The position numbers and the translations under genes are program-made. A stretch of DNA of 20,000 bases from an uncultured virus (IMG/VR IMGVR_UViG_3300014043_000005) (taxonomy: Duplodnaviria; Heunggongvirae; Uroviricota; Caudoviricetes): IMG/VR virus record IMGVR_UViG_3300014043_000005; one strand, 5' to 3'. Each line of letters starts with the position of its first letter. Position 1 is the first letter of the stretch. Positions 1,193-19,360 of this stretch are shown here, piece by piece. The notes under the pieces are model-generated. The model was not told where the DNA came from, ran no database searches, and saw only the letters and a program-made list of their open reading frames with translations.

Positions 1193-2167
1193 ATGTGGAC
1201 GGATGACAATGAACTCATTGAATGCGACTGGTGCGGTGAATCATTCAATGATTATGAACTCACTGAATGCAAGGAACCCATGTGCAATAAACAGTATTGC
1301 TCGGATTGCATTGAACGGCATTGCCTGCAGTGCGTGTCCTGTGAACGGACTTATTGTCTGGATGAACTCATTGAATGCAGTGAATGCGGCGCGTTTGTAT
1401 GTGAACGCTGCATTGAAAAATGTGAAATCTGCGATGCGTTCCTGTGCCGTTATTGCAATAACGAACATGATTGCGAATACATTGAAACAGTGAAACCGGA
1501 ATATACTGCCACACCGGAGGGTTTTTCAATTGGAGTGGAAATTGAGGTTCCTGGCGTGCATGATCACTGGAGTTTTGCTAACAGCGAACTCATCGCCGGA
1601 TGGGAACATGATGGTTCACTCGGTGACATCGGCGCGATTGAATACCAATCCCAGCCGTTCACATATGATGAGAATGCCATCAATGAACTCACCGGACTCA
1701 TTGATTCAGTGAGACTGGATGTTAATGGGAATCCGAATGACGCTGGCGGTCATATTCATGTTCAGCGCACGCCGCGCCAGAATGCGGATGCGTGGATGGA
1801 AGCATTGCTTGCATTGAATGCGGATGAATGCAATGCGTTCAACATGCGGCATGCTGATTGCGAACGGAATTATTATTGTATGCCGATTCCATCACATACC
1901 GGTAAGCATTGTCTGGTGAATGATGAGCATGAGAACACCATTGAAATCCGTTCATTCGGATGCTGGTGGCATGAATCCAGCGCGTCATTCGCGCCTGCCG
2001 TTGAATGGTTGCATGAAATGTGGGAATGGTTTGAAACGCCTAACCCTGTCATTGGACACAATGGAATCAGGAATCATGATGCCGCGATGCGCGCGATCCG
2101 TGAACATGCGCATGAAACAGCCGAACGCATCTTGAACCCCAAGCCTCCATTAAGGCGACGGGCGTAG
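1193..2167 (+). CDS. Putative amidoligase (COOH-NH2 ligase type 2-like) with N-terminal Cys-rich CxxC repeat region
   Basis: Motifs IGVEIEV, WEHDGSL, IEYQSQP, AGGHIHV and TIEIRSF are typical of phage amidoligase-2 proteins; ~19 Cys in the first ~95 aa. Start moved to ATG 1193 because of the upstream GGAAGG RBS and promoter. Last ~10 codons and the TAG come from an IS remnant. Confidence 0.75.
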   Translation: MWTDDNELIECDWCGESFNDYELTECKEPMCNKQYCSDCIERHCLQCVSCERTYCLDELIECSECGAFVCERCIEKCEICDAFLCRYCNNEHDCEYIETVKPEYTATPEGFSIGVEIEVPGVHDHWSFANSELIAGWEHDGSLGDIGAIEYQSQPFTYDENAINELTGLIDSVRLDVNGNPNDAGGHIHVQRTPRQNADAWMEALLALNADECNAFNMRHADCERNYYCMPIPSHTGKHCLVNDEHENTIEIRSFGCWWHESSASFAPAVEWLHEMWEWFETPNPVIGHNGIRNHDAAMRAIREHAHETAERILNPKPPLRRRA

Positions 2168-2201
2168 GAATCCCCAGCCTTCAGGCAGGGGAGGAAGTCA
2201 A
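2134..2201 (+). mobile_element. Orphan IS200/IS605 right end / TnpB omegaRNA 3' remnant
   Basis: 61/68 nt identical to 19189-19256; GGAATCCCC..hairpin..GGGGAGGAAGTCAA terminus resembles the end of the tnpB element at 5559. Confidence 0.8.
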
Positions 2202-2484
2202 TAGAACCTATGTCCGGCATGGCGATGTTTGAAAACAGTGAACGTTTTAATGATGCGTTTCCCTGATTATTCTCACTGGATGCTTATGATATGCGACAAG
2301 TGTCAACATGATTCCAATGATGAAACCAATTATGTTCATGTTAATTAAACTTTCTTCCAAAACTTATAATAATAATTATAATCATAGAATATGATTCTTA
2401 ACAGGAATAGTATAATTAATAATGATTATAATGATTTCACGGGATATTCACATTATGGTGATTTTGCAGGAAGGATAAATCATA

Positions 2485-2958
2485 ATGGTTGATTTGATTG
2501 ATTGGAAAACAGCATTGAAAGCGAATCCGGGTGCGTTGGATGGCAAATGGGCGTCATTTGACTCATTCACCGGCCAGCACATGGAAGGCATTGTATTCAC
2601 TGATAACAGGAAGAACCTGCTATTGCAGACAGCGGCGGATGCACCAGCGGATGGCACTGACGATAAACGCCAACCGGGGTTGAACACGAAACCTCATGGC
2701 ATTCCGTTCATGCAGCATCTCGGCGGTACGTTCGTTCCTGATCCCACTGTGTTCACTGCAAGCATCCGTGTCATTGAACCGTTCAGCATGCCTCGCATCC
2801 TGCTATTGGACGGAACTAATCTGAGCGGTGATTTCAAACCTCATGGTGATAATGCGTATGATGTCATCCTGTTGGATGGCAGGAAACTTCTGGTTCCATT
2901 GACGGCAGTGAAATATGTCGTTCAGACGGTATTGGATGAAGGGAATCCTTTCGCATGA
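2485..2958 (+). CDS. Hypothetical protein (157 aa)
   Basis: ORF with GGAAGG RBS; stop overlaps the next start (ATGA). Confidence 0.75.
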   Translation: MVDLIDWKTALKANPGALDGKWASFDSFTGQHMEGIVFTDNRKNLLLQTAADAPADGTDDKRQPGLNTKPHGIPFMQHLGGTFVPDPTVFTASIRVIEPFSMPRILLLDGTNLSGDFKPHGDNAYDVILLDGRKLLVPLTAVKYVVQTVLDEGNPFA

Positions 2959-3530
2959 TTGCATTCATTATCCCGCCATTAATGTTGAAGGAAAACTGGA
3001 CGCCGATTGATGTGTTCGCTGAGGCATTCAAAAACGAATGGTCGTTAACGAATAAACCTGCGTTTTTCATTCTCATTGCCAGCATAGTCTCATTAGCAAC
3101 ATTATATAAACGTGCGAACAGCAAAAAAATCAAGGTGGAATCAAGAAGAACAGCGGCACGCATGCTGAAATGGCTTCTTGTTCCATTGACTATCGCGATT
3201 TTCATCACCGGATGGATTAACCTGACTCATATAGGTAATTTCATACTGGGAATATGCGGTGCGATTGTTCTCGTTTTCATGCTTGGAGCAGTTGCGTCGG
3301 ATTGGGGCAAACCATCGGAACCAGTGAAATATGCGTATCGTGATGGTTATGCCACACGGGAAACTGGACGCATTGTGAACACGTATACAGGGGAAGTCCG
3401 TTACATGAGCGATCTGCATGATGGACGGAAACTTCCATCCGGGTTTGTTATCGCGGATGATTTCACCAAGGTTGATATTGATCCCGGTTTGAAACTGCAT
3501 GATGCGCCATTAAGCAAACGATTCATGTGA
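2955..3530 (+). CDS. Hypothetical membrane protein (191 aa, ~3 TM segments)
   Basis: Hydrophobic stretches (AFFILIASIVSLA, WLLVPLTIAIFITGW, FILGICGAIVLVFMLGAV); translationally coupled to the upstream gene. Confidence 0.75.
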   Translation: MIAFIIPPLMLKENWTPIDVFAEAFKNEWSLTNKPAFFILIASIVSLATLYKRANSKKIKVESRRTAARMLKWLLVPLTIAIFITGWINLTHIGNFILGICGAIVLVFMLGAVASDWGKPSEPVKYAYRDGYATRETGRIVNTYTGEVRYMSDLHDGRKLPSGFVIADDFTKVDIDPGLKLHDAPLSKRFM

Positions 3531-3543
3531 ATAATACTCCTTT

Positions 3544-3600
3544 AACGGGAATGAACACAATGAGAACATGCCGTGTTCATTCCCGTTTTAGTTTTTTTTT
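3544..3600 (+). terminator. Intrinsic terminator
   Basis: Perfect 15-bp stem AACGGGAATGAACAC (3544-3558) / GTGTTCATTCCCGTT (3573-3587) followed by a T run. Confidence 0.8.
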
Positions 3601-3686
3601 CAGATGAACCAGTATGGAATAATTTGAATGATTATGGTTTCCGTGTTGGTTCGCATAATCCGATTATCATAAATGAGCCTCTATCA

Positions 3687-3717
3687 TGCTGTCTCAAAAA
3701 AGAATCGCCGCCGTCAC
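3687..3717. repeat. Outer imperfect inverted repeat (partner 6080-6111)
   Basis: TGCTGTCTCAAAAAAGAATCGCCGCCGTCAC versus the reverse complement of 6080-6111, TGCTGTTTTCAAAATAGAATCGCCTCCGTCAC. Confidence 0.8.
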
Positions 3718-3864
3718 TGGTCGCTCATGTGAATGTCCGTAAGCCTGTAATCATTCCCGTGTCCTGCTGCATGCGTATCCTGCTGCATGCATGTGAACAC
3801 CAGTATCTCTAACCGTTCGAGTCGCGCCGACACATAACCGTGCCCTGATGCTCGCGCCCCCGTA

Positions 3865-3919
3865 TGCTCACCCTGAAACTCACACGGGTACTCCCTGCTT
3901 GCTTTCAGGTGAACCAGGT
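3865..3919. repeat. Left arm of 55-bp perfect inverted repeat
   Basis: Exact reverse complement of 5924-5978. Confidence 0.95.
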
Positions 3920-4116
3920 CAGAATGAGTTTTTGAACAGTATGATTATATAATGATAATCCATGATAATATGATTATATTGCAAACATTAACCTTATGCT
4001 ATTGAAAAATGTTAATCTTTTTTGTTGCAAGCATTGAATACAATCATCATCAGATGCGGTTCCATTATTTAATTATTAGCGCATGTCTTGAACGCATTTG
4101 CAAACATTCAATAACC

Positions 4117-4131
4117 GGTTCACCTGAAAGC
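4117..4131 (+). repeat. Iterated 15-mer GGTTCACCTGAAAGC (also 5612-5626, 5928-5942, inverted 3901-3915)
   Basis: Four exact copies in the non-coding region. Confidence 0.9.
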
Positions 4132-4139
4132 GGACTTAT

Positions 4140-5559
4140 CAAATTATTGTGCTGGAATACCCCTATTTTTAAATATGAGGGATGACAGCGCAATATCTAA
4201 CTAAAAAGTTAAAAAATAACATTTAAAAGTTGCATACTAGTGGGAGAGTGTGATATCATAGTAAGTATGACAACAGCAGGTAATAATATGCAGACTGTCA
4301 GGTATAATTACCGATTGTACCCGACTAAAACTCAAGAGACTGTGTTGAACCGCCTCTTTGGGTGCTGCCGTGTTGTCTATAATGATACTATTGATTTCTT
4401 TAATAATAATTTTAACCCTAATAATCAGAGTAAACTACCAACCGCAGCGAATGCTAGTAAACAAATACTAACAAGTGCTAAGAAAACCGTTAAGAGAGCC
4501 TTTCTGAAGGAAGTCTCCAGTGTCGCACTTCAGCAGGAGTTCCGTAATGCTTGGTTAGCTTGTTTGCATGGTGTAAGTCATACTAGTAATCAGAAACCAG
4601 CAAAGCGTAAGACTAAGAAGCATAATCCAGTGAACTCAGCTAACTTCACTAGTAATGGTTTCAGTATTAACCAGCATGGTGTGTATATATCGAAAATCGG
4701 GGTTATTAAAACCAAGTGGTCACGCCCCATGCCTAGTGAACCAACTAGTTGCACTATTAGTCATGCTAGGAATGGTCGTTGGTATGCTAGTTTTGTTGTT
4801 AAGCGTCCTAAAACACCATTCGCGCAGTGTGATAATAATGCTGGCATTGACATGGGACTCACTGATATGGCTACGATTGTTAATACGAAAGGTGATAGGT
4901 GGAAGATAGCAAACCCGCGTAATTACGCTAAAATACAGGATAAGATTGGTCGTTTACAGCGACACCTTAGTAAGCAGACTAAAGGTTCTAAGAGGTATGA
5001 GCGAACCCGCCATCAGATAGCATTACTCTATTCTAAGGCTCATGATGCCCTTGCTGATTACCAATGGAAGAATGTTCTCAATATCATACGCGAGACCCAA
5101 GCTATTGGTGTTGAGACACTTGACATTAAAAGTATGACTGCTAAGCATGGTAAGAGTGTACGTGATGCTTCTATGCGTTCATTCCTTAATAAACTGGGTT
5201 CTAAGGCTGATGAGCATTGTAGGGTTATTATCCGGCTTAATCAGTGGTTGGTTACGACTAAAGTGTGTGCTCTTTGTAAGCATAAGTTGAAGGTTGGGTT
5301 GCCTGAGTATGCTAGGCATTGGGTGTGCCCGAAGTGTGGGGCTCACCTGGATCGTGATTATAATGCTGCTCTTAATATCCTCGACGCGGCAGGGCTTGCC
5401 GGGTCGTTAAATGCGCGTGGAGGGAGCGTAATATCATTCTTAGCTTCTGCTGAGAATGGCTGCTCTCGTAGAACCGCGTACCACCCTAATTTCTAGTGAT
5501 TAGAGTTCGCTAGTATACGGTTAGGAATCACCCGACTTTAGTCGTGGTGAGGAAGTCAA
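4140..5559 (+). mobile_element. IS200/IS605-family tnpB-only element (IS1341-like)
   Basis: tnpB ORF; left-end hairpin region ~4150-4191; right-end hairpin 5528-5550 ending GGAAGTCAA (5559); composition differs from the flanks; left boundary after TTAT (4136-4139) is inferred. Confidence 0.85.
4267..5496 (+). CDS. tnpB: RNA-guided endonuclease TnpB
   Basis: N-terminal RYNYRLYPT...LFGCCRVVYN; RuvC-I GIDMGL; RuvC-II GVETLD; zinc finger CALC/CPKC; RuvC-III DRDYNAALNI. ATG 4267 lies 7 nt after the promoter TTGCAT(4230)...TGATATCAT(4251-4259), i.e. leaderless. Confidence 0.95.
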   Translation: MTTAGNNMQTVRYNYRLYPTKTQETVLNRLFGCCRVVYNDTIDFFNNNFNPNNQSKLPTAANASKQILTSAKKTVKRAFLKEVSSVALQQEFRNAWLACLHGVSHTSNQKPAKRKTKKHNPVNSANFTSNGFSINQHGVYISKIGVIKTKWSRPMPSEPTSCTISHARNGRWYASFVVKRPKTPFAQCDNNAGIDMGLTDMATIVNTKGDRWKIANPRNYAKIQDKIGRLQRHLSKQTKGSKRYERTRHQIALLYSKAHDALADYQWKNVLNIIRETQAIGVETLDIKSMTAKHGKSVRDASMRSFLNKLGSKADEHCRVIIRLNQWLVTTKVCALCKHKLKVGLPEYARHWVCPKCGAHLDRDYNAALNILDAAGLAGSLNARGGSVISFLASAENGCSRRTAYHPNF

Positions 5560-5579
5560 AATTCATATGGATTAATTTG
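5380..5579 (+). ncRNA. Predicted TnpB omegaRNA (scaffold to 5559, guide from 5560)
   Basis: Known architecture: the omegaRNA overlaps the tnpB 3' end and the right end; 5' boundary is approximate. Confidence 0.6.
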
Positions 5580-5923
5580 AATAACATGTGGCATTATTCA
5601 AATTTCACAGTGGTTCACCTGAAAGCGATACTGCAACAAGCGGATAATTCTGATTGCATTGTTAACATAATCAGTATGATTTTTTCATTGAATTCATGAA
5701 TACGGGAAACCGTGAAAATCGATGCCGTTCACAGAGCGCAGAATAATAGGCTCTGTGGACGGCTGTTTTAACCGGAATCACGGAAAACCCTGTTTTCGAT
5801 GCGTGTCTCATGAAACATATAGAATCGCCGTCAGAATCGAAATAAGAGTTTTTTATGATGTGAAAAATCACCATGAATACTCTGAACAACGCATCATCCT
5901 GAACTCTTGAAAATGGCTTTTTA

Positions 5924-5978
5924 ACCTGGTTCACCTGAAAGCAAGCAGGGAGTACCCGTGTGAGTTTCAGGGTGAGCA
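5924..5978. repeat. Right arm of 55-bp perfect inverted repeat
   Basis: ACCTGGTTCACCTGAAAGCAAGCAGGGAGTACCCGTGTGAGTTTCAGGGTGAGCA = reverse complement of 3865-3919. Confidence 0.95.
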
Positions 5979-6242
5979 ATCAGCGCGACCAGTATGGCTG
6001 GCTCCGACTGGTACAGTGGACAGTATTCATATACGGGCTGGCATCATGCAGGCAACAACGTGATGGATACGGGCAACATGTGACGGAGGCGATTCTATTT
6101 TGAAAACAGCACTTACGATAGATGTGATTTGATGTGGTTTCAGCCCTGCTCTGCTCAGTTTGCATCTATGACGAAAACCGCGTAGTCGTTGCCCTTGCGG
6201 TAGGAACTGCGCATCGTACACGTCGCATTCGGAGCGAATGAC

Positions 6243-6497
6243 ATGACAGCGGAACTATTGGATGGTTTGCTGTCATGTGATTTCGGTGAATGCATGAAAC
6301 CTTGTTCACAGGGCGACATTGGTTATGCGAAGTCACTCATGGGTGTTGCGCGGAATGAATTGAGCATGGATGATTTCCGATTGTTCATTTGGATGCGAAC
6401 AATGAATGCATGTGAGCGGTACGCGCCGGTTTTGCGCGTAATAATATGCTTGCAATGTTTGATGATGCGATGCACAATGAGATTGCTTATATTATGA
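6243..6497 (+). CDS. Hypothetical protein, possibly decayed
   Basis: 84-aa ORF with GGAG upstream; C-terminal part looks out of frame. Confidence 0.35.
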   Translation: MTAELLDGLLSCDFGECMKPCSQGDIGYAKSLMGVARNELSMDDFRLFIWMRTMNACERYAPVLRVIICLQCLMMRCTMRLLIL

Positions 6498-6542
6498 GTC
6501 ATGGTTTGAATGCTTATCGGTTCTCATGCTATCATTGGCTGC

Positions 6543-7421
6543 ATGATATCAAATGATGAAATGCAGGAAATTCGGGATTACATTGACAGTTTGATGCATG
6601 AGCATGGCGGAAACGGGTATTATGATAAGATGTATGCCGTCAGTGAGATTCCCGCGTTTGAAACCATTGTTAATTACAGTAATGCGAACATTGGACTCAT
6701 TCATGAGTATGTGAATGATTATGTGGAAACCGGTAGGGTGAGGTCATTCCTTGCAGGTTCGGACATTTATAATTCAGTGTCATTTTTCAATGAGTTGAAT
6801 ATTTTCATTTATCATCATCATGATTATGATAATCTGGTTCCTAAGAATATTCGTGATGCAATGCGCACATGGACAATGTTATGTGTTCCACATGGTATTA
6901 TGAATGCTAATGGGTTCAAATTGACATCATCTTTTTCATCTATGAGTCAATACATGCATTATCTCATGCGTAAAAATGATATGAATAACAGTGAAATCAG
7001 TCATGCTCTTGCTGACCCGTCATATTATCCGCGTGTCATTCGTGATGAAACCGATGCATTCATTGGGGATGTCATTAACGGGAACCGTCGTAATACTGAA
7101 ACCTTATTGAAATTCATAATGAAATATAATGAACCTGTATCATCATATGATTTGGATACATTGGTTTCAAATGAAACCATTATGAGCATATCATATGACG
7201 ATATGCTTCCCGGTATTCTCATGACTGATAATTGGAATGAACGCCTTGCATTCATGAAAGCATTCAATATTATGAAAACATATGCTGATGTCATAAGTGA
7301 TTTCAATGGGAACATGACATTGAATGATGCGATGCCAGCATTAATAGAAAATATGAATGGAATGCCTTTTGAATACACGTTGGAAATAATGAAAACCGGT
7401 ATGCCTGATTGCGTATCATAA
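6543..7421 (+). CDS. Hypothetical protein (~292 aa), leaderless
   Basis: Long ORF; TTGAAT(6506)...TGCTATCAT(6527-6535) lies 7 nt before ATG 6543. Confidence 0.75.
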   Translation: MISNDEMQEIRDYIDSLMHEHGGNGYYDKMYAVSEIPAFETIVNYSNANIGLIHEYVNDYVETGRVRSFLAGSDIYNSVSFFNELNIFIYHHHDYDNLVPKNIRDAMRTWTMLCVPHGIMNANGFKLTSSFSSMSQYMHYLMRKNDMNNSEISHALADPSYYPRVIRDETDAFIGDVINGNRRNTETLLKFIMKYNEPVSSYDLDTLVSNETIMSISYDDMLPGILMTDNWNERLAFMKAFNIMKTYADVISDFNGNMTLNDAMPALIENMNGMPFEYTLEIMKTGMPDCVS

Positions 7422-7429
7422 TTGATGGC

Positions 7430-7940
7430 ATGCATTCAAATGTTGGCATTATGAATATGGAATTGAAAACAGCTGGTGAACGCGGGATGCCAATGGAATT
7501 GAACGCAATATCGGTGGATGCGCATGATTATGATTTCAAGTATTTGCATGGATTCGTTGATGACTATGAGCATATCTCATACTGGACGCATTGAACCGAG
7601 GAGATTATTGATGAGTCCCATCATCGCGGAATATCATCAGTATGTCATGAATCATGATTAGCGTGAGAATATTGATGACGAATCCGAATTATTTGAAAAC
7701 ATGGAATGGCATTCTGGATGAAAGCAAAATGATTAAATTGGATTATTATAATCATGATTCGATGCGTGCGTTATTGAATCCTATGAACAATCATTGAAAA
7801 CAATGGAATCATAATGCATCAATTCATTGCAGGTACCATTGAATGCTTTATTATTGCGTGATTGCAAACAGGTGATTAATGATTACTCAATGGAATATTG
7901 CACGGGAACAATCGAAAATTATTACTCATTCATGATATTT
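7430..7940 (+). pseudogene. Probable decayed gene
   Basis: Coding-like composition but broken into short frames by TGA/TAA stops and frameshifts. Confidence 0.35.
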
Positions 7941-8121
7941 ATATGCTATCATTGTAGACAAATGAAATCATTCTGAAAGGAACATGATATGACTGTTAAT
8001 ATTATTCTCATGTTCCATGCGTCCCATCATTGAACATGAAACTATTCCATGTGAACAATGATGATAGCATGGAAACAACATGATAACAAGCATTTATTAT
8101 ATTTTTTGATGGGAGTTTAAC

Positions 8122-9264
8122 ATGATTGATTTAACTGATTTGGATACTGGTTTGCGTTCGATGGAAACCAGACTTGATGTGAACGAATTGATTGCACGTA
8201 ATGATGCTATTCGTTCAATGATGGATTCATCGGATTATTGGGTACGGCGTGGTGATGATGCCAGCATGATAGCAAGTGAACTCACACGGAACCAGAAATT
8301 ATTGGATGATTACACTGGTTTGAAAAACGACATCGCTGGTTTGCATGATTACACTGAACTCATGAATGATGATGAACTCACGGATGATGACCGCAATTGT
8401 CTCATTGCGGAACATGATAGGCTCATGAACGCATTGAATGCAATGCGATTGGACATCGCAGTGAGCGGCATTGATTATGCGGACAGGGACGCGATTATCA
8501 CGATTCATGCTGGTTCAGGCGGAACGGAATCGGAAAACTGGTGCTGGATGCTATCACGAATGTATATGCGTTATGTTGAAACCAATGATTACAATTCGGA
8601 CATTGATGATGTCGCTTATGGTGATGGCGGCGCAGGTTATGATTTATTGCGTTCAATCAGCATCCGGATAAGCAAACAGAAGAATCACCATTATGATGGC
8701 ATGTATTCATTTCCATTTGCGTTATTTTCACGGGAAGCGGGACGGCAGAAACTCATCAGAATCTCACCTTTTGACAAGAATCATCGCAGGCAAACCAGCG
8801 TGTGCTCAGTTGATGTGATTCCTGTTTTAGATGAACACATTACAAGCATTAAAGACATTATAATCGATCCGAAAGATTTGAAAACCGATGTGTTCTGCGC
8901 ATCCGGGCCGGGTGGACAATGCGTGAACACTACGTATTCAGCTGTCCGTCTGACGCATATTCCAACTGGTATTGTAGTCAGTCAACAGGATGAACGTGAT
9001 CAGCATCGTAATCGTGAGAAAGCAATGCTTGTATTGAAAACGCGGTTATTATTGTTGAAACAACAGGAACAGAAGGAGAAGCTGAAATCACTGGGCAATG
9101 ATGTTGGTACTACAATGGGTGGAACAATCCGGAATTATGTCCTGTATCCTTATGAACAGGTTAAGGATACACGGACTGGATGCGTTGCAACCAATGTGGA
9201 CATCATGCTGGAAACAGGTGAAGGATTAGATGATTTCCTGCGCACGGAACTATTCGTTTTATAA
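8122..9264 (+). CDS. prfB: Peptide chain release factor 2 homologue
   Basis: AGSGGTES..W..ML.RMY, SPF specificity motif (RISPFDKNHRRQTS), GGQ (SGPGGQCVNTTYSAVRLTHIPTG), C-terminal IRNYVLYPYEQVKDTRTG. Confidence 0.92.
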   Translation: MIDLTDLDTGLRSMETRLDVNELIARNDAIRSMMDSSDYWVRRGDDASMIASELTRNQKLLDDYTGLKNDIAGLHDYTELMNDDELTDDDRNCLIAEHDRLMNALNAMRLDIAVSGIDYADRDAIITIHAGSGGTESENWCWMLSRMYMRYVETNDYNSDIDDVAYGDGGAGYDLLRSISIRISKQKNHHYDGMYSFPFALFSREAGRQKLIRISPFDKNHRRQTSVCSVDVIPVLDEHITSIKDIIIDPKDLKTDVFCASGPGGQCVNTTYSAVRLTHIPTGIVVSQQDERDQHRNREKAMLVLKTRLLLLKQQEQKEKLKSLGNDVGTTMGGTIRNYVLYPYEQVKDTRTGCVATNVDIMLETGEGLDDFLRTELFVL

Positions 9265-9321
9265 TCAATGCATGTGATATTTCCACATTGCGTTCAATGA
9301 GAACAGGAAAGCAGGTGGATT

Positions 9322-9693
9322 ATGTCGAATGATGAGATTTTCAAGATGCATGGAATACTGGTACCATTTATTTTCATTGCGTTTCATCTTGTCGGTTCAC
9401 TGACTGCGGTTCATCCATTATGGCTTGCGATAATAATCGGATTCATTGACATCATTGGAGGCAGTGTGTTAATGTCATTCATCATCACCGTTACATGGTT
9501 GAATGGACATTTGGATAAATTCAGGAATGGTATTATAATCAGTGTCATCATCATGCTTGCAGGTGCATTCACTTTCATGCCGCCGAGCTGGATGGGAGTT
9601 TTGACAACCGTGCTGCTGGCAGGTGAATACGCGCTCATATGGGCGTGTGCGACGAATAATCCAGTGGATGAACAGCCAACTGAGGAATGGTGA
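9322..9693 (+). CDS. Small 4-TM membrane protein
   Basis: Four hydrophobic segments; AGGTGG RBS. Confidence 0.75.
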   Translation: MSNDEIFKMHGILVPFIFIAFHLVGSLTAVHPLWLAIIIGFIDIIGGSVLMSFIITVTWLNGHLDKFRNGIIISVIIMLAGAFTFMPPSWMGVLTTVLLAGEYALIWACATNNPVDEQPTEEW

Positions 9694-9852
9694 ACTAGTG
9701 ATGCCGTTAAAAGTGAACATATTGTGATCATTTGATGGCGGTGCCATTCATGATTGGCATTTCATATGAGTGTTTTGCTGTAATCATAATGTTGACATGA
9801 GCGCATAATCAATGAACATACCATTGGCTGTTGCATGTGATATAATGCTTAT

Positions 9853-10332
9853 ATGATAACCGGTATTGATTACAATGATTCCAATGCAATCATTCATGAT
9901 GATACGCATGGCGATGTAACCGTGCGATTGGATAACATTGGGAACATGCGCATGGATGGTTTCAATATTAACGGGAAACCATTGGATTGGATGCATCGCG
10001 CGATCATTTGTCGTGAAATCATCGATTACGCGAACAAACATGACATGGATGTTGCCCTCATTGATTCAAGTGGAATCATACGATACGCAAGCATTGAAAA
10101 CATGCTGACACATGTGAAACGCAGGCTGATGATTGACAAACAGGATAGAATGCATGAGCAACTACGAATGGGAGCCGGTTATAGCATGGATGGAGCGAGC
10201 ATAATCAATCAACTCATTGACAAGCTGCGTTCACATGATGACATCAGCATGGAACTCATGGCGCTGGGTTATGATGAGGTTCCATCATTCATTATCAAAT
10301 GTATTAATAGTATTCATGGAAAAACCAATTGA
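9853..10332 (+). CDS. Hypothetical protein (159 aa), leaderless
   Basis: TGATATAAT (9838-9846) lies 6 nt before the ATG. Confidence 0.7.
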   Translation: MITGIDYNDSNAIIHDDTHGDVTVRLDNIGNMRMDGFNINGKPLDWMHRAIICREIIDYANKHDMDVALIDSSGIIRYASIENMLTHVKRRLMIDKQDRMHEQLRMGAGYSMDGASIINQLIDKLRSHDDISMELMALGYDEVPSFIIKCINSIHGKTN

Positions 10333-10341
10333 ATTTTTCCT

Positions 10342-10349
10342 GATAGATT
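10342..10349 (+). promoter_or_regulatory. Shared upstream motif GATAGATT (also 12239, 13390, 14985); candidate element-specific (late) promoter
   Basis: Identical 8-mer 34-51 nt upstream of four leader-bearing genes. Confidence 0.6.
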
Positions 10350-10383
10350 CAATTGGATGCATTGTGAACATGGAAGGAATAAC

Positions 10384-11481
10384 ATGGCTGGGAAACGGAC
10401 GCCTGCTGGAACATGGTATGAGGGCAAGGACGGGAAACCTCATCCCTGCATGACAGAGAACGGCAAACCATGTTCCAAGCATGCTAAGAACCAGCATATT
10501 GGTAATTCCTATGAGGAAGCCGAACAAGCCATTGAAGCGAAATATGACGCGGATATGAATTCAATGGGGACAGGGCTCACATCCGAGCAAACAGCAATGC
10601 TAACCAGCATTCTGAATGATGCTAAGCATGATTCCAATGACCGCATTGAAAGCATTCTCGGTGAACCGGTTGAACATATTGGTTCTATTCCAGTGTATGA
10701 GGATAAGCATGCTTCGCCGGATGGCGTTGCAGCGTTATATTACCCGCATGTCAAGGATGGTACTGTCCATGTGGATTCATTGCGTTCAATCGCGGACGAT
10801 GCAAGTATGAATGATGATGAATCACATGGTGTGAGGCAGTATACTGGTTATGGCGCGTATGATATGAATCGTGTTCTGCGAGGTGATGAAATGACGGATC
10901 ATTCACCGGATGAACAAGGTGGAGTCGTGCATGATTTGAACTCATTGACTGATCTGCTGGATAGGACTGAATCACCGGATGACATGATAGTGTATCGACA
11001 GGAACGCTTCATGGTTGGTGATTCCCCTGAATATAAAGCAATAGTGAATGCATGCAATGAGAACAATGATGACATGTATGATAAACATGATTTCACCAGC
11101 ACGACAATTAATGGCGGGAACCGTCGTGGAATGGAGGAATCGACTGGTTGTGTGGATTATGTGATAATGATTCCAAAAGGCACGCACGGAATGCTGGTGG
11201 ATTCACAATCATATCATGCTGATGAACAGGAATTCCTTGTCCAACAAGGACAATCATATAAGGTTAAGGCGATTGTGAACAGGGGTTCTGGTTATAGGTT
11301 GAATCAGCGGAAACCTATTGTCATAATGGAAGCAGTGCCAGCAGAGTCACATCCAGTAAGAATCAATGAGGATGATTATGGTTTTGATGGTTCCATGATG
11401 ATGACGGAGGATGATGTTGACGCCATGATGAGTGAAGACATAATAAGTGATAGTTTTTTCGAAGATCTATTGGATTATTAA
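10384..11481 (+). CDS. ADP-ribosyltransferase ART1 (VIP2-like) with N-terminal CCH leader and acidic tail
   Basis: YDMNRVLR, DMIVYR, FTSTT, IPKGTHG, EQEFL (R-S-ExE); start ATG 10384 after GGAAGG. Confidence 0.85.
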   Translation: MAGKRTPAGTWYEGKDGKPHPCMTENGKPCSKHAKNQHIGNSYEEAEQAIEAKYDADMNSMGTGLTSEQTAMLTSILNDAKHDSNDRIESILGEPVEHIGSIPVYEDKHASPDGVAALYYPHVKDGTVHVDSLRSIADDASMNDDESHGVRQYTGYGAYDMNRVLRGDEMTDHSPDEQGGVVHDLNSLTDLLDRTESPDDMIVYRQERFMVGDSPEYKAIVNACNENNDDMYDKHDFTSTTINGGNRRGMEESTGCVDYVIMIPKGTHGMLVDSQSYHADEQEFLVQQGQSYKVKAIVNRGSGYRLNQRKPIVIMEAVPAESHPVRINEDDYGFDGSMMMTEDDVDAMMSEDIISDSFFEDLLDY

Positions 11482-11639
11482 CTGATAATAATTTTTATAA
11501 TATAATGCTCGCATGATGAATATCGGCTTCTTTGCTTGCCTTGACATCCGGCATTTTCAATCGGAATTCATCAGCTGTGTAATCATAATATTTTTTCATG
11601 ATTACAATAATATAATACGATGATTATGCTGCTAACATT

Positions 11640-12096
11640 TTTAATTGGATGACGGAACCATATTCGATTCCATCATCCAATTATGTTACTATACAATCAC
11701 ATATTTCATCATTCCGTGATATGCATTTCAAATGCCGCGCAACGCGAATCATCCATTTCAATCAATGTTCTCATCATGCCATCATCGAGTCCATAACGTC
11801 CACCGCATGGAATGAAATATTGCATGCCGGGCAAACCAATCATGTCAGTTTTACCATGATAAATGAAGTTCCTTATTTCATAACCATCATTGATGAGCAT
11901 GCCCCTTACGGTGATTACATATCATAATCATCCAATGTGAATATTTTATCATATTTTCTTATTGAACGCATCACGATTCACGGAACTATGATAATCATCA
12001 CCATGTGCAATGATTACTGGCTCCTTATACCCGCTCTGCATCGTCAGCCATTTCACTGTATCCAATGTCATTATAAACATTCTCAATGGTATTCAT
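11640..12096 (-). pseudogene. Frameshifted remnant gene
   Basis: TATACT -10 followed by ATG (MNTIENVYNDIG...); coding-like fragments in shifting frames, including the 63-aa ORF 11709-11900. Confidence 0.4.
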
Positions 12097-12296
12097 GATT
12101 ACAGTATACTACATGATATGAATCCATACAAGAAAACAGTCATAATGATGATAATATTGAATGCATGAATAAGAATGATATGCGTGAACCGAACCTGACG
12201 AGTTTCATCAGTGATTTCGGAAATTCTGATGTTTTCACGATAGATTCCATGTGAACATGAATGCAAATATTACCATAATCACGGAGGTGAATCATC

Positions 12297-13328
12297 ATGC
12301 GAAAGCCAGCTGGAACATGGTATGAAGGCAAGGACGGGAAACCTCATCCCTGCATAACCGAGAATGGCAAACCATGTTCCAAGCATGCTGGCAGTGAACA
12401 CATAGGAACCACTTATGAGGAAGCCGAACAGTATATCCAAAGGAAATATTCCGATACCGTTTTCATTGGAATGTCATCATTGAATCCAATGTTTTCAGAT
12501 AGAACGAATAATAATGATGAATCATTCAAAATGACTGACATGATGATTCGGCGCGAAAAACTGAACAATGATGGGAACATGCCGATACGCATGAAAATAC
12601 CAGTTGATTATCCAACCGAACGCATCTCACAGATAATGTTTCCATCCACGCCGGATGCACGGAGCATGGAAAATGAACTCATGGATTCAGCGAATGCATC
12701 ATGGAAATCAATGACGGAACATGAGAAGGATTCCATTCGCGCTTATTGTTCCGATGCGTATGAGGCGATGAATGAGTATCAGCGTGGGGATGATGACATT
12801 CGTGCGGACATTGACAATGACGAATTCGTGAAAGCGGATTTGAAAAACTATGGTTTCAGGACTGTTAAAGGCGCGATAAGCACAATGAGCCGCGCTTTAA
12901 GGAAAACAAGCACAGGCAGGGACATGATAGTGTATCGTTCCAGGTTCACGGAAGCATCCAGTGGCGGACGTGACATGGAAGAGAGAACATTCTATGATGC
13001 TGGCATGAATGCATTGGAAACAGGCGAACCGGCAATCATCCGGAAAGCCGGGTTCTCATCAACGACAACGGATTTGAAATCATTGTTCTCAGGATTGGGG
13101 GGAGCACCATCGGACACGCCTCATAATGTGAAATACGTGATTAAAGTGCCTGCCGAGACTCATGGAATGTATGTCGGTGGGCTGTCACCGAATCATGAGG
13201 AGAAGGAATTCCTCATGAATAAAGGCATGAAATACCGGATCGCGGGAATTTTCGAACGCGGAACATATGATGATTATGAGAATGACTGGGATGCCGCGCC
13301 GATAATCGCATTGGAAATCATGAAATGA
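12297..13328 (+). CDS. ADP-ribosyltransferase ART2 with CCH leader
   Basis: YEAMNEYQR, DMIVYR, FSSTT, VPAETHG, EKEFL, PIIALE; GGAGG RBS. Confidence 0.85.
   Translation: MRKPAGTWYEGKDGKPHPCITENGKPCSKHAGSEHIGTTYEEAEQYIQRKYSDTVFIGMSSLNPMFSDRTNNNDESFKMTDMMIRREKLNNDGNMPIRMKIPVDYPTERISQIMFPSTPDARSMENELMDSANASWKSMTEHEKDSIRAYCSDAYEAMNEYQRGDDDIRADIDNDEFVKADLKNYGFRTVKGAISTMSRALRKTSTGRDMIVYRSRFTEASSGGRDMEERTFYDAGMNALETGEPAIIRKAGFSSTTTDLKSLFSGLGGAPSDTPHNVKYVIKVPAETHGMYVGGLSPNHEEKEFLMNKGMKYRIAGIFERGTYDDYENDWDAAPIIALEIMK
12305..12389 (+). repeat. Leader-encoding direct repeat (80/85 identical to 10401-10485)
   Basis: Direct comparison; differences are mostly synonymous. Confidence 0.9.
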
Positions 13329-13448
13329 GCACATGAGAACATGATGCGTTCACATGCTATTATTATTCAATATAAGTATTGAAAACACGGATAGATTGAC
13401 ATCAGGAACATAATTTGTTAACATGAATGCATGGAAGGAAAACATATC

Positions 13449-14912
13449 ATGGCGACTAAAACATATGGTTATGACAGGAACGGGAATGTAAGTGAATGCA
13501 CCGCGCAGGAACGGAATCGCGGTAAGGGACGCTGTAATCATTACGGTCATTTCAATACTGATAACAAACAGGAACTCATTGAGAAGACAGAAGCGATTCA
13601 AGCCGAACTGAACAATGATGTGAACGCCGGAATGATTGCGCACAATGTATCCAAAACCGGTTCGGCGGAGCGGGAATTCGAACGAGTGCATGCAGTTGAA
13701 ATCAGGAATGCGGAACAGGAATATGAGAAAGCGAAAACCGCTTATGATGCCGTCCGCATGAAACCTGATGCGATTGAAACCGAATACAGGACGCTGGTGG
13801 ATGCGAATAATAGGAAATACGCGGAATTGGATGCACGCATTGACAACATGAGTTATCCATCCGGTGATAAGGAACTGGATGAACGGTTTGAACGAGCATT
13901 CAATGATTCGCTCACTGATAAATCCGATTTTGATGTTGATGATCTTAAATCAGGAGGAAGAATCATCCTGCATAAAGGCGATATCAATGAATTCATTCCT
14001 GAAATCAGTGAAATCCCGGCAGATGAACGTGTGTATGCTGATGATGAGGGATTGGATTATTATGATGCATCGGATGATGAACCGGAAGGATGGTATAGGA
14101 ACGGTGAATATTACGCTGATTATGATGATCCGTCAATCATTGATGTGAATGCAATTCAGGATGCTGTTGTCAATGAGGATTCATTGGATATAACCGATCA
14201 TGCGATTTCATCCACTAAATACACTATGCATCAGGAACTTAAACAGGAACATGCGGAAGCGGATAAGGAAGCGTTGAATACCGCAAAATCACATCATCCT
14301 ATGACCGAGAATGAGGAAAAACAGGCGCTTGACGCCAGAGTTAGATTCATGAACGCATCCATGAGGTTGAAAAAGCTGAATGATGCGAAAAACATCGCGG
14401 GAATCGCAGGTTTTGATGTCATCAGGAAAATCAATGAATCCAATGATGGTGTGAAAACATATGAGAACAGACTGAAAACGGAATTATCATATGGCGGTCA
14501 TGTTGATTATGACTATGACTATGACTATGACGCTGGCGGAACCAGCCGGAAAATGCCGGGCGATTATTACACGTCCAGTATCACGAATGCGGATCCTGAT
14601 AATTGGTATACAGTGGATTCAGTTGAATACAATGATAGTGGGCTGAAAAAGAAAGCGTTGATTGACAGGGAAACCGATCCATATGTCCTGTCGAAAGCGG
14701 AGAAACAAAATGGTTTTCAGGAAGGATGGATGCGTGTCATTGATGATGATAAACATTCACCTGAAAGCCGTTACAGGATGATGATAACGCAAGCATATGA
14801 CAGCAATGGTTTCAATGATTACCAATTGAAGCAAATCCGTAAGTCAAAACTATATAAAACAGGAGGAATGCCTGATTTTGATAGGATAATCAGTATTATC
14901 CGCAGGAAATAG
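13449..14912 (+). CDS. CCH-leader protein without ART domain (coiled-coil and acidic, ~487 aa)
   Basis: N-terminus YGYDRNGNVSEC..........CNHYGH; heptad-like helices; Asp/Tyr-rich core; GGAAGG RBS. Confidence 0.8.
   Translation: MATKTYGYDRNGNVSECTAQERNRGKGRCNHYGHFNTDNKQELIEKTEAIQAELNNDVNAGMIAHNVSKTGSAEREFERVHAVEIRNAEQEYEKAKTAYDAVRMKPDAIETEYRTLVDANNRKYAELDARIDNMSYPSGDKELDERFERAFNDSLTDKSDFDVDDLKSGGRIILHKGDINEFIPEISEIPADERVYADDEGLDYYDASDDEPEGWYRNGEYYADYDDPSIIDVNAIQDAVVNEDSLDITDHAISSTKYTMHQELKQEHAEADKEALNTAKSHHPMTENEEKQALDARVRFMNASMRLKKLNDAKNIAGIAGFDVIRKINESNDGVKTYENRLKTELSYGGHVDYDYDYDYDAGGTSRKMPGDYYTSSITNADPDNWYTVDSVEYNDSGLKKKALIDRETDPYVLSKAEKQNGFQEGWMRVIDDDKHSPESRYRMMITQAYDSNGFNDYQLKQIRKSKLYKTGGMPDFDRIISIIRRK
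14505..14531 (+). repeat. Hexanucleotide tandem repeat (GAYTAT)4.5 encoding DYDYDYDYD
   Basis: gattat gactat gactat gactat gac. Confidence 0.8.
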
Positions 14913-14929
14913 AATAATTCAATTAATTT

Positions 14930-14981
14930 AATGCGTGCATTGTAAATATGAATTGCATAATGCACGCATTTGTATTATTTT
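14930..14981 (+). terminator. Probable terminator hairpin
   Basis: 12-bp stem AATGCGTGCATT / AATGCACGCATT with a T-rich tail. Confidence 0.6.
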
Positions 14982-15031
14982 CCCGATAGATTACCATAAG
15001 AGAAGAATGACATTATAGAAGGAATAGCATC

Positions 15032-16516
15032 ATGGTAGGCATGGTTGATAATGCTCCGAAACAATTGAAAAATAAGAAACCGGATGAATCATGGCCGCAT
15101 CATCAGGATAAGCATGGTAACTGGGTTCCCTGCGCTTCCAATCCATGTAAAATGCATGGCGGAACGGAAATCATGGCTAAGAATCCGGAGGAGGCATTTG
15201 AGAAAGCGAATTCAGTATCATGGGGTTCATTCGGAATGAGCATGAATCAGAAGAACGATAACATTGATGAAACTGATAAAAATTCAGAAACTGATAATTC
15301 AAATGCTAATAATCACAAAGTGAAAGAGCATGCGTTGGATGGTGTTTTGAAAGCTGGAATGACATCATTGAATGCAAATGATAACAATGATGACATGAAT
15401 GACAAGCAGAAAGCGGCATGGGATAAACTGCAATCCGCAATGGATGATAATTCGCATGATGAGCATAAACCGGTGAAGAAACATGTGAAATTGACTAAAA
15501 AGAAAACTGTAAAACCAGTTGAAACCAGCGATGACAATATGAGCAAAACCGGGACAATCACCGGATCACATGAATCGAAACAGACTGAATCATCAACTGG
15601 AACCACTTCCAGTTCAAATGCGTCCAATGCTGGCATTATAACATCAAACAGGCATCTTATGAAACAACGCGCCGTGATTGAACAACGGTTGAAAGATGCT
15701 GGCATTGATATCATTGAGCGTCCTGCGCCATCACAGGAAGTAATTGATGAAATGCGTAATAATGGCGAGTATATTCGTGATAATCCGCTTGTTTTCAATG
15801 TGGACAGTAAAGTGAACACGCAGGAACTTGCGCACGCCATTTTCAAGGGAGCGGATTTCGGTGATGAACATTATAAGGAACTTATTCAGCGTTCTAATGA
15901 GGCGTGGGATTCAATGACATCAGATGAACAGGACGCAATTTATCAGTATACCGGTTCCGCATATAGTTCGATGAATAAGGCATTATATAAGAAAAACTAT
16001 AAAGCGGAGAAATCATTAAAAAAGATCGCTGACATGAGTTCGGGACTGGCGAAAACAGAGAATGTATGCCAACATGATACTGTGTTGTATCGTCGCCGTT
16101 TCCTGAAAGAACAGGACGGCGAGTATACACGGAGCAGGGAGGAGACCGCCGCATTTCAAGCCCTTGCGCGTGTTACCGGTAAGAAAACAGCGAAACCTAC
16201 TTTCACTCGTGCCAATTATATGAGTACAGCTAATCGTGGTTTCAATAATAGCTATCATGATCAAGTTAGATACATTATAAGCATTCCGAAAGGCACGCAT
16301 GGTATTTCAGTGGAGGAACATAGCATTCATAGCAGTGAGGATGAGTTCATCATTGACAAAGGCTATGATTATGAGGTTGTCGGCGTGTTCCAAACAAGCG
16401 AAATACGTAAACACAGTAACGGCATTACCAATTGGGAAACAGGATGCAGCCCGATAATCGCCTTGCGTGTAATTCCGAAAAAGAATAAATCCGTCAAACC
16501 GGGAATGACAGCATGA
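15032..16516 (+). CDS. ADP-ribosyltransferase ART3 with CCH leader and low-complexity linker
   Basis: YSSMNKAL, DTVLYR, YMSTA, IPKGTHG, EDEFI, PIIALR. Confidence 0.85.
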   Translation: MVGMVDNAPKQLKNKKPDESWPHHQDKHGNWVPCASNPCKMHGGTEIMAKNPEEAFEKANSVSWGSFGMSMNQKNDNIDETDKNSETDNSNANNHKVKEHALDGVLKAGMTSLNANDNNDDMNDKQKAAWDKLQSAMDDNSHDEHKPVKKHVKLTKKKTVKPVETSDDNMSKTGTITGSHESKQTESSTGTTSSSNASNAGIITSNRHLMKQRAVIEQRLKDAGIDIIERPAPSQEVIDEMRNNGEYIRDNPLVFNVDSKVNTQELAHAIFKGADFGDEHYKELIQRSNEAWDSMTSDEQDAIYQYTGSAYSSMNKALYKKNYKAEKSLKKIADMSSGLAKTENVCQHDTVLYRRRFLKEQDGEYTRSREETAAFQALARVTGKKTAKPTFTRANYMSTANRGFNNSYHDQVRYIISIPKGTHGISVEEHSIHSSEDEFIIDKGYDYEVVGVFQTSEIRKHSNGITNWETGCSPIIALRVIPKKNKSVKPGMTA

Positions 16517-17569
16517 ACGCATTGAAAACAACCAGCGAATGGCCGCATCATCAGGATAAGCATGGCAACTGTGTTCCCTGCGCTTCCAATCCATGTAAAA
16601 TGCATGGCGGAACGGAAATCATGGCTAAGAATCCGGAGGAAGCGTTTGAGAAGGCAAACAGCGCATTCACTGAATTTATTAAAAAGCTGAATAATGCTGG
16701 CATTAAACTGGCGGATCGCACGCAGAATGACGAGGACATTATTAAGGAACTGCGTGATAACAATGAATACATTGATGATAATCCACGGTGTTTCCATGTG
16801 AATGGTGATGATGTGAGCGCTTATGATATCGCGCATGCATTATTCCCCGATGCTGATTATGGTGATAATGATGACATCATGGAAGCATTGAATGAACGTT
16901 CGGAAGCGATATGGCATGCGATGTCATACGATGAAATGATTGCATTGAATGATTATTGCGATCGTGGTTATCAGCAAGGTTAACGGCACTCTCATTAAAG
17001 GACGGAATGTGCTTGAAGATGATGATGGACAGATATTGACATCGGAACAGGTTCATGATGAGATTAATAACATTTCATCCGCATTATCAAGAACCGGGGA
17101 TGTGATAACTCATGAAACCATTGTGTACAGAAGACAGGGAAATGCATGGAAATATGGCATAGGCGATGAAACAATGGCAATCATGAATTCCCTCATATCC
17201 AATGATGGCGTTCCGGTTGTCCGCCGTCCGAATTATGTCAGCACATCAATGCAGGCATCATTGGATACGGCTGATTTCAACTCATCCGCTCATCATGAAA
17301 CACAATATGTGATTAGCGTTCCAGCTGGCGTCCGTGCTTTATCAGTCGCGAATCATAGTGAATTCAGTGAGAATGAACTTATCATTGATAAAGGCTATAA
17401 ATTCGAGGTTATAGGCGTTTTTCAAACATCTCAATTGGGACATCAGGATGCAGTCATTGGAATCAATGAGGATGGTAAGAAACAGCATGATGGAATATTG
17501 AATTGGAAGCGTGATGGCAATCCAATAATCGCGTTGCGCGTCATCCCTTATTTCAATGTGGATAAATGA
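16513..17569 (+). pseudogene. ADP-ribosyltransferase ART4, split by a +1 frameshift near 16978
   Basis: Removing one G in CAA-G-GTT joins ORFs 16513-16983 and 16949-17569 as GYQQVNGTL (cf. GYKQVNADL in ART5); ETIVYR, YVSTS, ENELI present. Confidence 0.8.
16539..16652 (+). repeat. Leader-encoding direct repeat (110/114 identical to 15091-15204)
   Basis: Direct comparison. Confidence 0.9.
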
Positions 17570-17633
17570 ACGCATATAATATGGAAACATGATGCATTAT
17601 CAACAATAATAACATGATGTTGGAAGGATTTGA

Positions 17634-18928: not shown

Positions 18929-19256
18929 CAATCATGTGAGAGGGCGGCGGTGAATCACGCACACGCATAACCGACTCTCTATGTAGTGCTTTCAATCGAG
19001 AATTATATGATATTTTTAAATCAAATTTTGCATTATCCAAAAGAATATGATATTATAGTAAGCATGAGTTCATACAGGCGTTATAATTATCGGCTGCTTT
19101 GAATATTCTTGACTCCGTAGAGGTGATGTAAGACGAAGGCTGGCGCAAGCCAGTCGCAACGTTAACGCCAATGAAGCGGGAACCCACCGAACCGCAATCC
19201 TCCATTAAGGCGACCGGCGTAGGAATCCCACGCCTTCAGGCGTGGGAGGAAGTCAA
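18929..19256 (+). mobile_element. Miniature, internally deleted tnpB element retaining promoter and omegaRNA region
   Basis: Promoter TTGCAT-17-TATTAT; ATG 19064 MSSYRRYNYRL fused out of frame to AALNILD (19093-19113); right-end hairpin ending GGAAGTCAA at 19256; left boundary inferred. Confidence 0.8.
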
Positions 19257-19360
19257 TATGATTGACATTGTTTCATTAATATGATAGTATAATTATGTAA
19301 ATAATATTTTATTCATGTTAACATTGTTATCATGAACCGTTCTGGAAAGGATGATTTGAA

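Follow-up and report, generated by a model that had tools for sequence, protein, structure and literature searches.

A dispersed, mosaic intergenic repeat module interrupted by a TnpB-only insertion sequence in a cattle-gut replicon

The IMG/VR virus record IMGVR_UViG_3300014043_000005, of which we analysed a stretch of 20,000 nucleotides (hereafter, the window), carries a symmetric region at 3687–6111 in which nested inverted repeats and short direct repeats surround a TnpB-type insertion sequence (IS). A reading made from the sequence alone had proposed this region as a bidirectional replication origin, a partition or packaging site, or an invertible segment. We show here that the DNA interrupted by the IS belongs to a non-coding intergenic module that is mosaic and occurs dispersed at many sites: the symmetry of the window reflects two members of a repeat family lying head to head, and its 55-bp stretch of perfect identity is a core, termed B, that is found family-wide. 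The evidence does not support reading the region as a unique origin or as a segment that inverts.

The symmetric region as one copy of a dispersed module

The inverted and direct repeats of the symmetric region are confirmed to lie far above chance. The 15-mer GGTTCACCTGAAAGC has four exact copies in the window (3901 on the minus strand; 4117, 5612 and 5928 on the plus strand), and when up to three mismatches were allowed, six matches were found against 0.29 expected, a number reached by 0 of 200 shuffled sequences. The word AGAATCGCC occurs three times (3701 and 5821, plus; 6088, minus) against 0.12 expected, and again 0 of 200 shuffles gave three. The sequence-only reading had given both the fourfold occurrence of the first word and the three sites of the second; it had likewise located the perfect 55-bp inverted repeat correctly and had placed the outer, imperfect repeat of about 31 bp some 7 nt off (Table 1). 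Its description of an AT-rich core between GC-richer arms agrees with the GC profile, which runs at 0.35–0.39 across 4001–4600 versus 0.45–0.49 on the arms. By alignment, 3600–3960 and the reverse complement of 5880–6240 form a diverged inverted duplication of about 300 bp, with indels on both sides of the perfect core.

Loci related to the module were retrieved by an exact 19-mer from the B core, which identified 31 stretches on 23 metagenome contigs. Eighteen of these 23, from cattle-gut metagenomes, have further arm sequence in common with the window; the other five have nothing else in common with it and were taken as chance matches. Together, the 18 related contigs (referred to below by L and a number) hold 26 distinct arm sequences at about 17 genomic sites, and module counts per genome, based as they are on the retrieved loci, are estimates. 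The stretch is also contained in 20 public sequencing runs from 14 studies, of which those with a label come mostly from bovine gut; in several of the runs, 0.75 of the words of the stretch are present. When the contigs of four public runs were placed on the window, the depth over 3792–3965 and 5880–6053 was 13–22 times that of the flanks in all four, and 24 contigs per run fit both arms. Depth and joints from these runs rest on assembled contigs, which can show neither RNA ends nor minor orientations, and the contig gaps at 3895–3930 and 6147–6233 are not findings in themselves.

Comparison of the loci revealed a common anatomy. An arm consists of an A box (approximately TTTTCAAAAAAnGAATCGCCGCCGTCACTGGTCGCTCATG), a variable spacer of 120–200 nt, and the B core (approximately AAACTCACAGGGGTACTCCCTGCTTGCTTTCAGGTGAACCAGGT...TTTTCAA). 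Two arms usually face each other, with a plus-to-minus spacing of 528–702 bp in six other loci and of 603 bp in the window once the IS is removed, and the centre between them is AT-rich, about 0.5 kb long, and holds one to four free boxes (yCCGCTTTCAGGTGAACC) that lie 46–101 bp apart. In L024, the arms are separated by 2.77 kb and enclose two convergent genes, and the B core is internally duplicated in both L015 and L024. The sequence-only reading had further held that removing the IS leaves a core of about 585 bp in which the two internal direct repeats lie 75 bp apart. Relatives that lack the IS bear this out and show that the IS interrupts a symmetric non-coding core that was there before it: the repeats are kept, 584 bp remain between the 55-bp arms, and the two 16-mers are 75 bp apart in the IS-free L029 (4318 and 4393).

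What the family conserves is a short box. Across 120 kb of partly overlapping loci, the 15-mer has 42 distinct exact copies versus three, four, and eight copies with one, two, and three mismatches, respectively, and around 24 copies of the free box only about 18 nt are conserved, embedded in unrelated surroundings. Near-invariance amid unrelated DNA is the pattern of DNA recognition sites, as opposed to structural elements or repeats in decay, and the 15-mer accordingly behaves like a recognition site under selection, which supports the sequence-only reading to this extent. By contrast, the 5′ half of the arm hairpin is unconserved across the family: the 15-mer and its 5′ flank form at least eight pairs in 14 of the 26 arms—via several different 5′ sequences—and fewer than six pairs in ten arms, eight of which form none at all. 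The arms of the window had been described as imperfect hairpins; the hairpin exists, but as single-stranded DNA it is weak and no better than shuffled sequence (−7.6 kcal/mol, z −0.72; 42 of 200 shuffles as stable). RNA structure in the B core was considered and rejected, the covariation term of the consensus fold being close to 0 on both strands. A small protein encoded by the arms was rejected likewise, since frames through the B core (19–116 aa) are unrelated and unconserved, and among the small open reading frames (ORFs) of the centres none is conserved with a ribosome-binding site.

Two further elements, D and C, complete the module. In 14 of the 26 arms, here called D-type, the core is followed by AT-rich DNA, and in 12 of these 14 a TAnnnT hexamer stands at +50/+51 relative to the 15-mer, often after TG (eight picked by script, four read by eye from the script output); the window version of this context is TGATAATAT. 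The free boxes are co-directional with D in L005 and L006, and opposite to it in the window and L029. In the remaining arms, including the right arm of the window, the core leads on into element C, a hairpin with a T run behind it, whose fold in the window reaches −31.3 kcal/mol (z −6.57). In 14 copies of its helix, 92% of the cells are paired and three pairs show compensatory changes, with a covariation score that 0 of 500 shuffles reached, and lone copies of C are found just past gene 3′ ends, in matching orientation, in L016 and L022. From these sequence features we infer that D may be a promoter firing into the centre—and, in the window, into tnpB—and C the terminator of that transcript. 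An apparently unique, origin-like symmetry here becomes a repeat family with named parts (A, B, C, and D) plus an invariant 18-bp box, and having a name for the family should prevent its modules from being called, one by one, as origins or invertons.

Table 1 Features of the module, its insertion sequence, and adjoining DNA (window coordinates)
Feature	Position	Strand	Description
Hairpin, likely terminator outside the module	3544–3600	+	Perfect 15-bp stem (3544–3558 / 3573–3587), then T run; follows ORF 2955–3530
Outer inverted repeat	3694–3724 / 6073–6103		31 nt, 84%
A box, left arm (outer inverted repeat)	3694–3733	+	Family consensus approximately TTTTCAAAAAAnGAATCGCCGCCGTCACTGGTCGCTCATG
Variable A–B spacer, left arm	3734–3864	+	Includes tandem 16-mers at 3758–3789
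Inner inverted repeat	3865–3940 / 5903–5978		76 nt, 89%
Perfect stretch of inner repeat (first 55 nt)	3865–3919 / 5924–5978		100% match
B core, left arm	3865–3940	+	55-bp repeat 3865–3919; 15-mer 3901–3915 on minus strand
D element, AT-rich, promoter-like	3941–3977	+	−10-like TAATAT at 3966–3971 after TGA, facing rightwards into the centre
Free 16-mer box	4117–4132	+	GGTTCACCTGAAAGCG
TTAT, presumed target-adjacent motif	4136–4139	+	Directly 5′ of the left end of the IS
TnpB-only IS200/IS605-family IS	4140–5559	+	1,420 bp
tnpB gene	4288–5496	+	402 aa
Right end of the IS with omega-RNA-like 3′ scaffold	5470–5559	+	AGGAATC, imperfect hairpin, GAGGAAGTCAA; aligned with two solo ends in the window
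Flank usable as omega-RNA guide (putative role)	5560–5579	+	Adjoins the right end on its 3′ side
Free 16-mer box	5612–5627	+
C element	5710–5853	−	14-bp hairpin 5724–5763, then TGTTTT on plus strand; A-like AGAATCGCC at 5821–5829
B core, right arm	5903–5978	−	15-mer 5928–5942 on plus strand
A box, right arm	6073–6103	−
87-nt stretch replacing about 960–1050 bp of relatives	6147–6233	.	A short way beyond the right A box; run contigs end loosely at 6146 and 6234

The insertion sequence and the module edges

The element that splits the centre is new but unexceptional among IS200/IS605 elements of the TnpB-only type. In a structure search, its TnpB matched the ISDra2 TnpB structures 8exa and 8h1j (E 4e-40, residues 6–392), and the alignment to the top structure match, 9yyg, spans the query motifs GIDMG, VETLD, and DRDYNAALNI. 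As in IS1341-type elements and ISDra2, the protein combines helix-turn-helix (HTH), RuvC-like OrfB, and zinc-ribbon TNB domains (Pfam HTH_OrfB_IS605, 6.9e-14; OrfB_IS605, 1.2e-21; Cas12f1-like_TNB, 1.2e-15), the insertion lies 3′ of a short motif (TTAT) without terminal inverted repeats or target duplication, and an imperfect hairpin near the right end terminates in GAGGAAGTCAA. It differs from them in that tnpA is absent and that the omega-RNA region belongs to no Rfam family (no match at E ≤ 1). Pfam detected no Y1 (HUH) transposase domain in the 79 ORFs scanned either. Without tnpA, the IS would be non-autonomous and its transposase would have to be supplied in trans; elements of the IS1341 group are likewise non-autonomous. 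Given the known mechanism of TnpB and its position directly 3′ of the right end, the flank listed in Table 1 is the candidate guide.

The IS is polymorphic in natural populations. Its bounds, as called from the sequence alone, are exact, since relatives skip precisely 4140–5559. In L029, an assembled relative, window positions 2197–4139 and 5560–6146 are directly joined, and the empty site—GGACTTAT running straight into AATTCATATGG—is contiguous both there and in a contig of the public runs (X7); L027 has it as well, and L014 covers it in part. The joint from 4139 to 5560 in the run contigs omits exactly 1,420 bp; the X7 contig extends 180 nt from it on whichever side is shorter. Contigs crossing the filled IS junctions occur in the same four runs, and it is this coexistence of filled-junction and empty-site contigs that marks the insertion as polymorphic. 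With both alleles in the same samples, the locus offers a clean natural case of the logic of a target-adjacent motif (TTAT) plus guide. In X4, a contig end left loose behind 5559 suggests that the IS has another insertion site elsewhere.

Two solo omega-RNA-like right ends were observed at 2134–2203 and 19189–19258 (GAACC...AGGAATC-hairpin-GAGGAAGTCAA); they are 90% alike and resemble the IS end at 5470–5559. At the former site, the relative UMDH01030804.1 has about 1.9 kb, including a gene for a 389-aa TnpB, versus 59 nt in the window.

Close relatives differ at the edges of the module. The flanking genes match those of L029 at about 99% identity and the B cores at 99–100%, whereas the left A box and spacer reach only 79–83% (79% for the spacer, 3734–3864), which suggests that this patch may have been converted from a paralogous arm. 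In the run contigs, loose ends of other A-box copies begin at 3696. L022 is without a 75-bp unit between two direct 16-mers. Just outside the right A box, where the window has its 87-nt stretch, the extra DNA of relatives (L029 2838–3797) comprises the 3′ end of a truncated tnpB gene (...DQDVNAALNIL...), followed in our list by an end resembling that of an omega RNA and by an ORF of 81 aa; the 87 nt themselves are unrelated to the relatives, and the adjoining ORF 6243–6497 is shorter than the 114–149-aa ORFs found there. A 322-bp intergenic segment (L022 515–836) is absent from the window at 9765/9766; it contains a terminator hairpin of the C type, plus another hairpin that is perfect. Both indels, of about 1 kb and 322 bp, adjoin A or C elements. 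The indels that distinguish close relatives appear to be driven by TnpB elements in combination with recombination at the dispersed arms.

Function of the module

We put the probability at roughly 0.5 that the module serves as a regulatory cassette, present at dispersed sites and equipped with a box that binds a protein, and that a TnpB element has inserted into the copy seen here. D would act as a sigma-70-type promoter firing into the centre, in this window also into tnpB, and C would end its transcript ahead of the right arm. The invariant box is centred some 70 nt upstream of the predicted start, with further copies downstream; it would be bound by a sequence-specific protein, of replicon or host origin, that would switch the cassettes together. 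The arms, as dispersed homologous DNA, would also act as recombination points, which would explain the indels and the converted patch at arm edges.

A number of observations weigh against such a cassette. The promoter, terminator, and protein-binding activities are all predictions from sequence, and a generic promoter scan of the region gave 10 sites versus 8.9 expected, that is, no enrichment. The predicted D-to-C transcript encodes nothing recognisable. Free boxes stand in either orientation relative to the D promoter, which fits a DNA-binding site and no simple polar mechanism, and conservation of the B core is inflated by the 19-mer retrieval, which leaves the free boxes unaffected. By rough ORF calls, flanking genes point away from the arms on about nine sides and towards them on about five, so the module is not simply a divergent promoter region. 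Finally, our analysis identified no candidate for the box-binding protein.

Two rival explanations are possible and live. In the first, which we hold to be unlikely but worth serious attention, the modules are selfish, non-autonomous mosaic repeats of the BOX, BIME, REPIN, or MITE kind that would have spread among the intergenic regions without serving the replicon in any dedicated way, and any promoter or terminator activity is incidental. This would suit their mosaic, modular make-up and variable box number, the internal B-core duplications in L015 and L024, the presence or absence of the 75-bp unit and of segments bearing C between close relatives, and the abundance of IS200/IS605-type elements in the replicon, as well as the ability of 14 of the 26 arms to pair the 15-mer with one of several different 5′ flanks. 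However, a 15-mer that is nearly invariant in unrelated surroundings points to selection rather than decay. The arm-edge alignments contain neither target duplications nor sharp terminal repeats, Pfam found no Y1 (TnpA/RAYT) domain among the 79 proteins, and no whole module was seen to be present in one close relative and absent from another.

The second rival concerns replication. A single bidirectional origin or packaging site, as proposed from the sequence alone, is unlikely because these arms and boxes are found again and again, at about 17 sites on 18 related contigs, and because depth over the arms exceeds that of the flanks 13–22-fold in the four public runs. The modules might instead be multiple origins of a large replicon in the manner of T4, with the promoter, beside an AT-rich region of unwinding, priming replication and the 18-bp boxes serving as iterons for an initiator, for example the PriCT/Replicase-domain protein encoded beside one arm; we rate this as improbable. 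The AT-rich centre (GC 0.35–0.39), the one to four direct boxes per module, and a promoter-like element abutting AT-rich DNA speak for such origins, exact 19-mer matches cluster at one to two sites per 20–90-kb contig, and one arm lies directly upstream of the Replicase/PriCT_1 gene L020:1845–3413. Yet the boxes lack the regular phasing of iteron origins, being spaced irregularly at 46–101 bp in varying orientation, and about 17 arm sites are many for origins. There is no cluster of DnaA boxes (0 matches within 3687–6111; 10 in the whole window versus 8.4 expected), cumulative GC skew climbs through the locus without a switch, and a strong terminator sits within the module.

A broader proposal, for which we would give longer odds still, is that the modules make up a previously undescribed system of control acting across the whole genome of a large extrachromosomal replicon, uncultivated and from cattle gut, in which box arrays bound by one replicon-encoded protein serve as multiple origins or chromosome-organising sites. 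If true, replication would be coupled to transcription of the cassettes, box clusters would fall about one to two per 20–90 kb, and the binder could be the PriCT/Replicase-domain protein.

That the segment between the 55–76-bp arms is flipped by a site-specific recombinase, redirecting the D promoter to either flank, is highly improbable, and the earlier call of an invertible segment is left without support. As in an inverton or shufflon, long inverted repeats (76-nt arms with a 55-nt perfect core) do surround a 0.5–0.7-kb segment with an asymmetric promoter-like element, and the flanking genes diverge in several paralogous modules. But no serine or tyrosine recombinase domain was found in 20 window ORFs or in 59 ORFs flanking related loci, all four assemblies that span both arms (window, L029, L022, and L014) have the same orientation, as do L005 versus L006 and L010 versus L017, and the C terminator would stop the D transcript inside the segment. 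No strand-change joint was listed in the four runs, but the contigs of these runs are interrupted within the 55-bp core and give no phase across it, and inversion may on this account occur rarely. Just as improbable are structured non-coding RNAs encoded by the arms or centre: the region is non-coding and a promoter-to-terminator unit of about 330 nt is predicted without the IS, but the B core has no consensus structure or covariation on either strand, paralogous centres have only the boxes in common—and these in either orientation—and there is no Rfam match at E ≤ 1.

For the regulatory cassette, the 18-bp box provides a well-defined starting point in the search for the protein that would bind it, in a replicon of mostly unrecognisable proteins.

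The replicon and known repeat systems

We tentatively regard the uncultivated cattle-gut replicon that carries the module as a phage-like or extrachromosomal element. Searches with 3400–6400 against plasmid, phage, and E. coli collections returned no match. IMG/VR held no relative of either flanking protein, only a 27% identical match to TnpB, and no match to a 48-mer or a 22-mer from the B core; the GTDB species genomes gave five single 19-mer matches in unrelated soil metagenome-assembled genomes, which were taken as chance. No tRNAs were found in the window, and Rfam gave only four sub-threshold chance matches, none of them in the region. Most ORFs belong to no Pfam or PHROG family, and no virion gene was found in the parts examined; recognisable genes are those for a release-factor homologue, five paralogues with an ADP-ribosyltransferase domain, NAMPT, a dUTPase, an HNH protein, Replicase/PriCT_1, and several TnpBs. 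On related contigs, we observed genes for SecY, a class II fructose-bisphosphate aldolase, a triosephosphate isomerase with a 200-aa extension, a histidine phosphatase, Replicase/PriCT_1, and NAMPT (L002 5321–6691; L010 1918–3108 and 4856–6217; L016 6676–7509; L020 1845–3413 and 4249–5754). These genes, surrounded by ORFs that are mostly unrecognisable, make an odd mix for a phage.

Further observations concern genes of the window itself. The release-factor homologue (8122–9264, 380 aa) contains PCRF and RF-1 domains, and its PHROG match is phrog_19918 (1.5e-58). Stop-codon recoding, a possibility prompted by this gene, was rejected: ORFs in the standard code are clean, and reading TGA as tryptophan fuses frames implausibly. 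Five ORFs for ADP-ribosyltransferase exoenzymes (starting at 10357, 12297, 15032, 16949, and 17634, within 10357–18776) run in one direction, and DNA repeats at the N-terminal ends of ADP-ribosyltransferase ORFs pair 10396–10545 with 12300–12449 at 81% and 15091–15210 with 16539–16658 at 95%. A 20-nt motif (approximately CATGAACGCATTGAATGCAA) occurs at nine sites within 1208–16897 (for example, 8424–8443) with 80–100% identity, mostly in ORFs, accompanied by further CATTGAATG-like words; Met, Asp, Asn, and His are unusually frequent in the proteins. Three pairs of neighbouring ORFs are in the same frame and split by one or two stops without a frameshift (5980–6165 / 5671–5979 on the minus strand; 6243–6497 / 6510–7421; 9853–10332 / 10357–11481), which is no more than chance would give.

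Among known systems, iteron-type origins and the oriF/oriG-type origins of T4 place direct repeats beside an AT-rich stretch and a promoter-like element. The module resembles them in that its direct 16–18-bp boxes adjoin such a stretch and such an element, and differs in that there are many modules per replicon, with irregular boxes and neither DnaA boxes nor a skew change. In cluster A mycobacteriophages, stoperators lie scattered as single sites whose orientation follows transcription. With these, the box has in common that it is a short asymmetric site with tens of near-exact intergenic copies, implying one DNA-binding protein; the difference is that the boxes are clustered in modules and occur in both orientations.

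BIMEs are mosaic interspersed bacterial repeats, modular and extragenic. The repeat family described here is absent from Rfam and from the sequence collections searched, no literature search having been aimed at this repeat. As far as the published accounts of BOX (PMC3049150) and REPINs (PMC3116915) go, the likeness lies in a modular and extragenic make-up, a variable number of sub-boxes, and inverted doublets able to form hairpins. Within the same compass, our family departs from BOX, REPIN, and BIME repeats in that the box is exact while its context diverges, that a hairpin is absent from 10 of the 26 arms (counting at least six pairs), and that the replicon appears phage-like or extrachromosomal instead of a bacterial chromosome. 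In line with this, the hairpin is not family-wide and shows no covariation, and the scan of 79 proteins turned up neither a RAYT nor a TnpA, arguing against REPIN or REP membership.

The module would seem to work most like the PeSL promoter–terminator cassettes of T4-type phages, which are reported to be repeated in plastic regions where they mediate shuffling (PMC2839356, PMC4122927) and number about 50 per phage genome (PMC2839356). In both cases, repeated intergenic cassettes combine a sigma-70-like promoter with a stem-loop terminator—here both predicted—and both are located in plastic regions, with indels or replacements between close relatives at the cassettes (PMC2839356, PMC4122927). 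The comparison is one of design, and our unit differs in being about 0.8–1 kb long and built from two inverted arms of 250–300 bp, in adding arrays of an invariant 18-bp box, and in its lower density. It is these paired long inverted arms, together with the arrays of the invariant 18-bp box, that set the module apart from PeSL, BOX, BIME, and REPIN elements.

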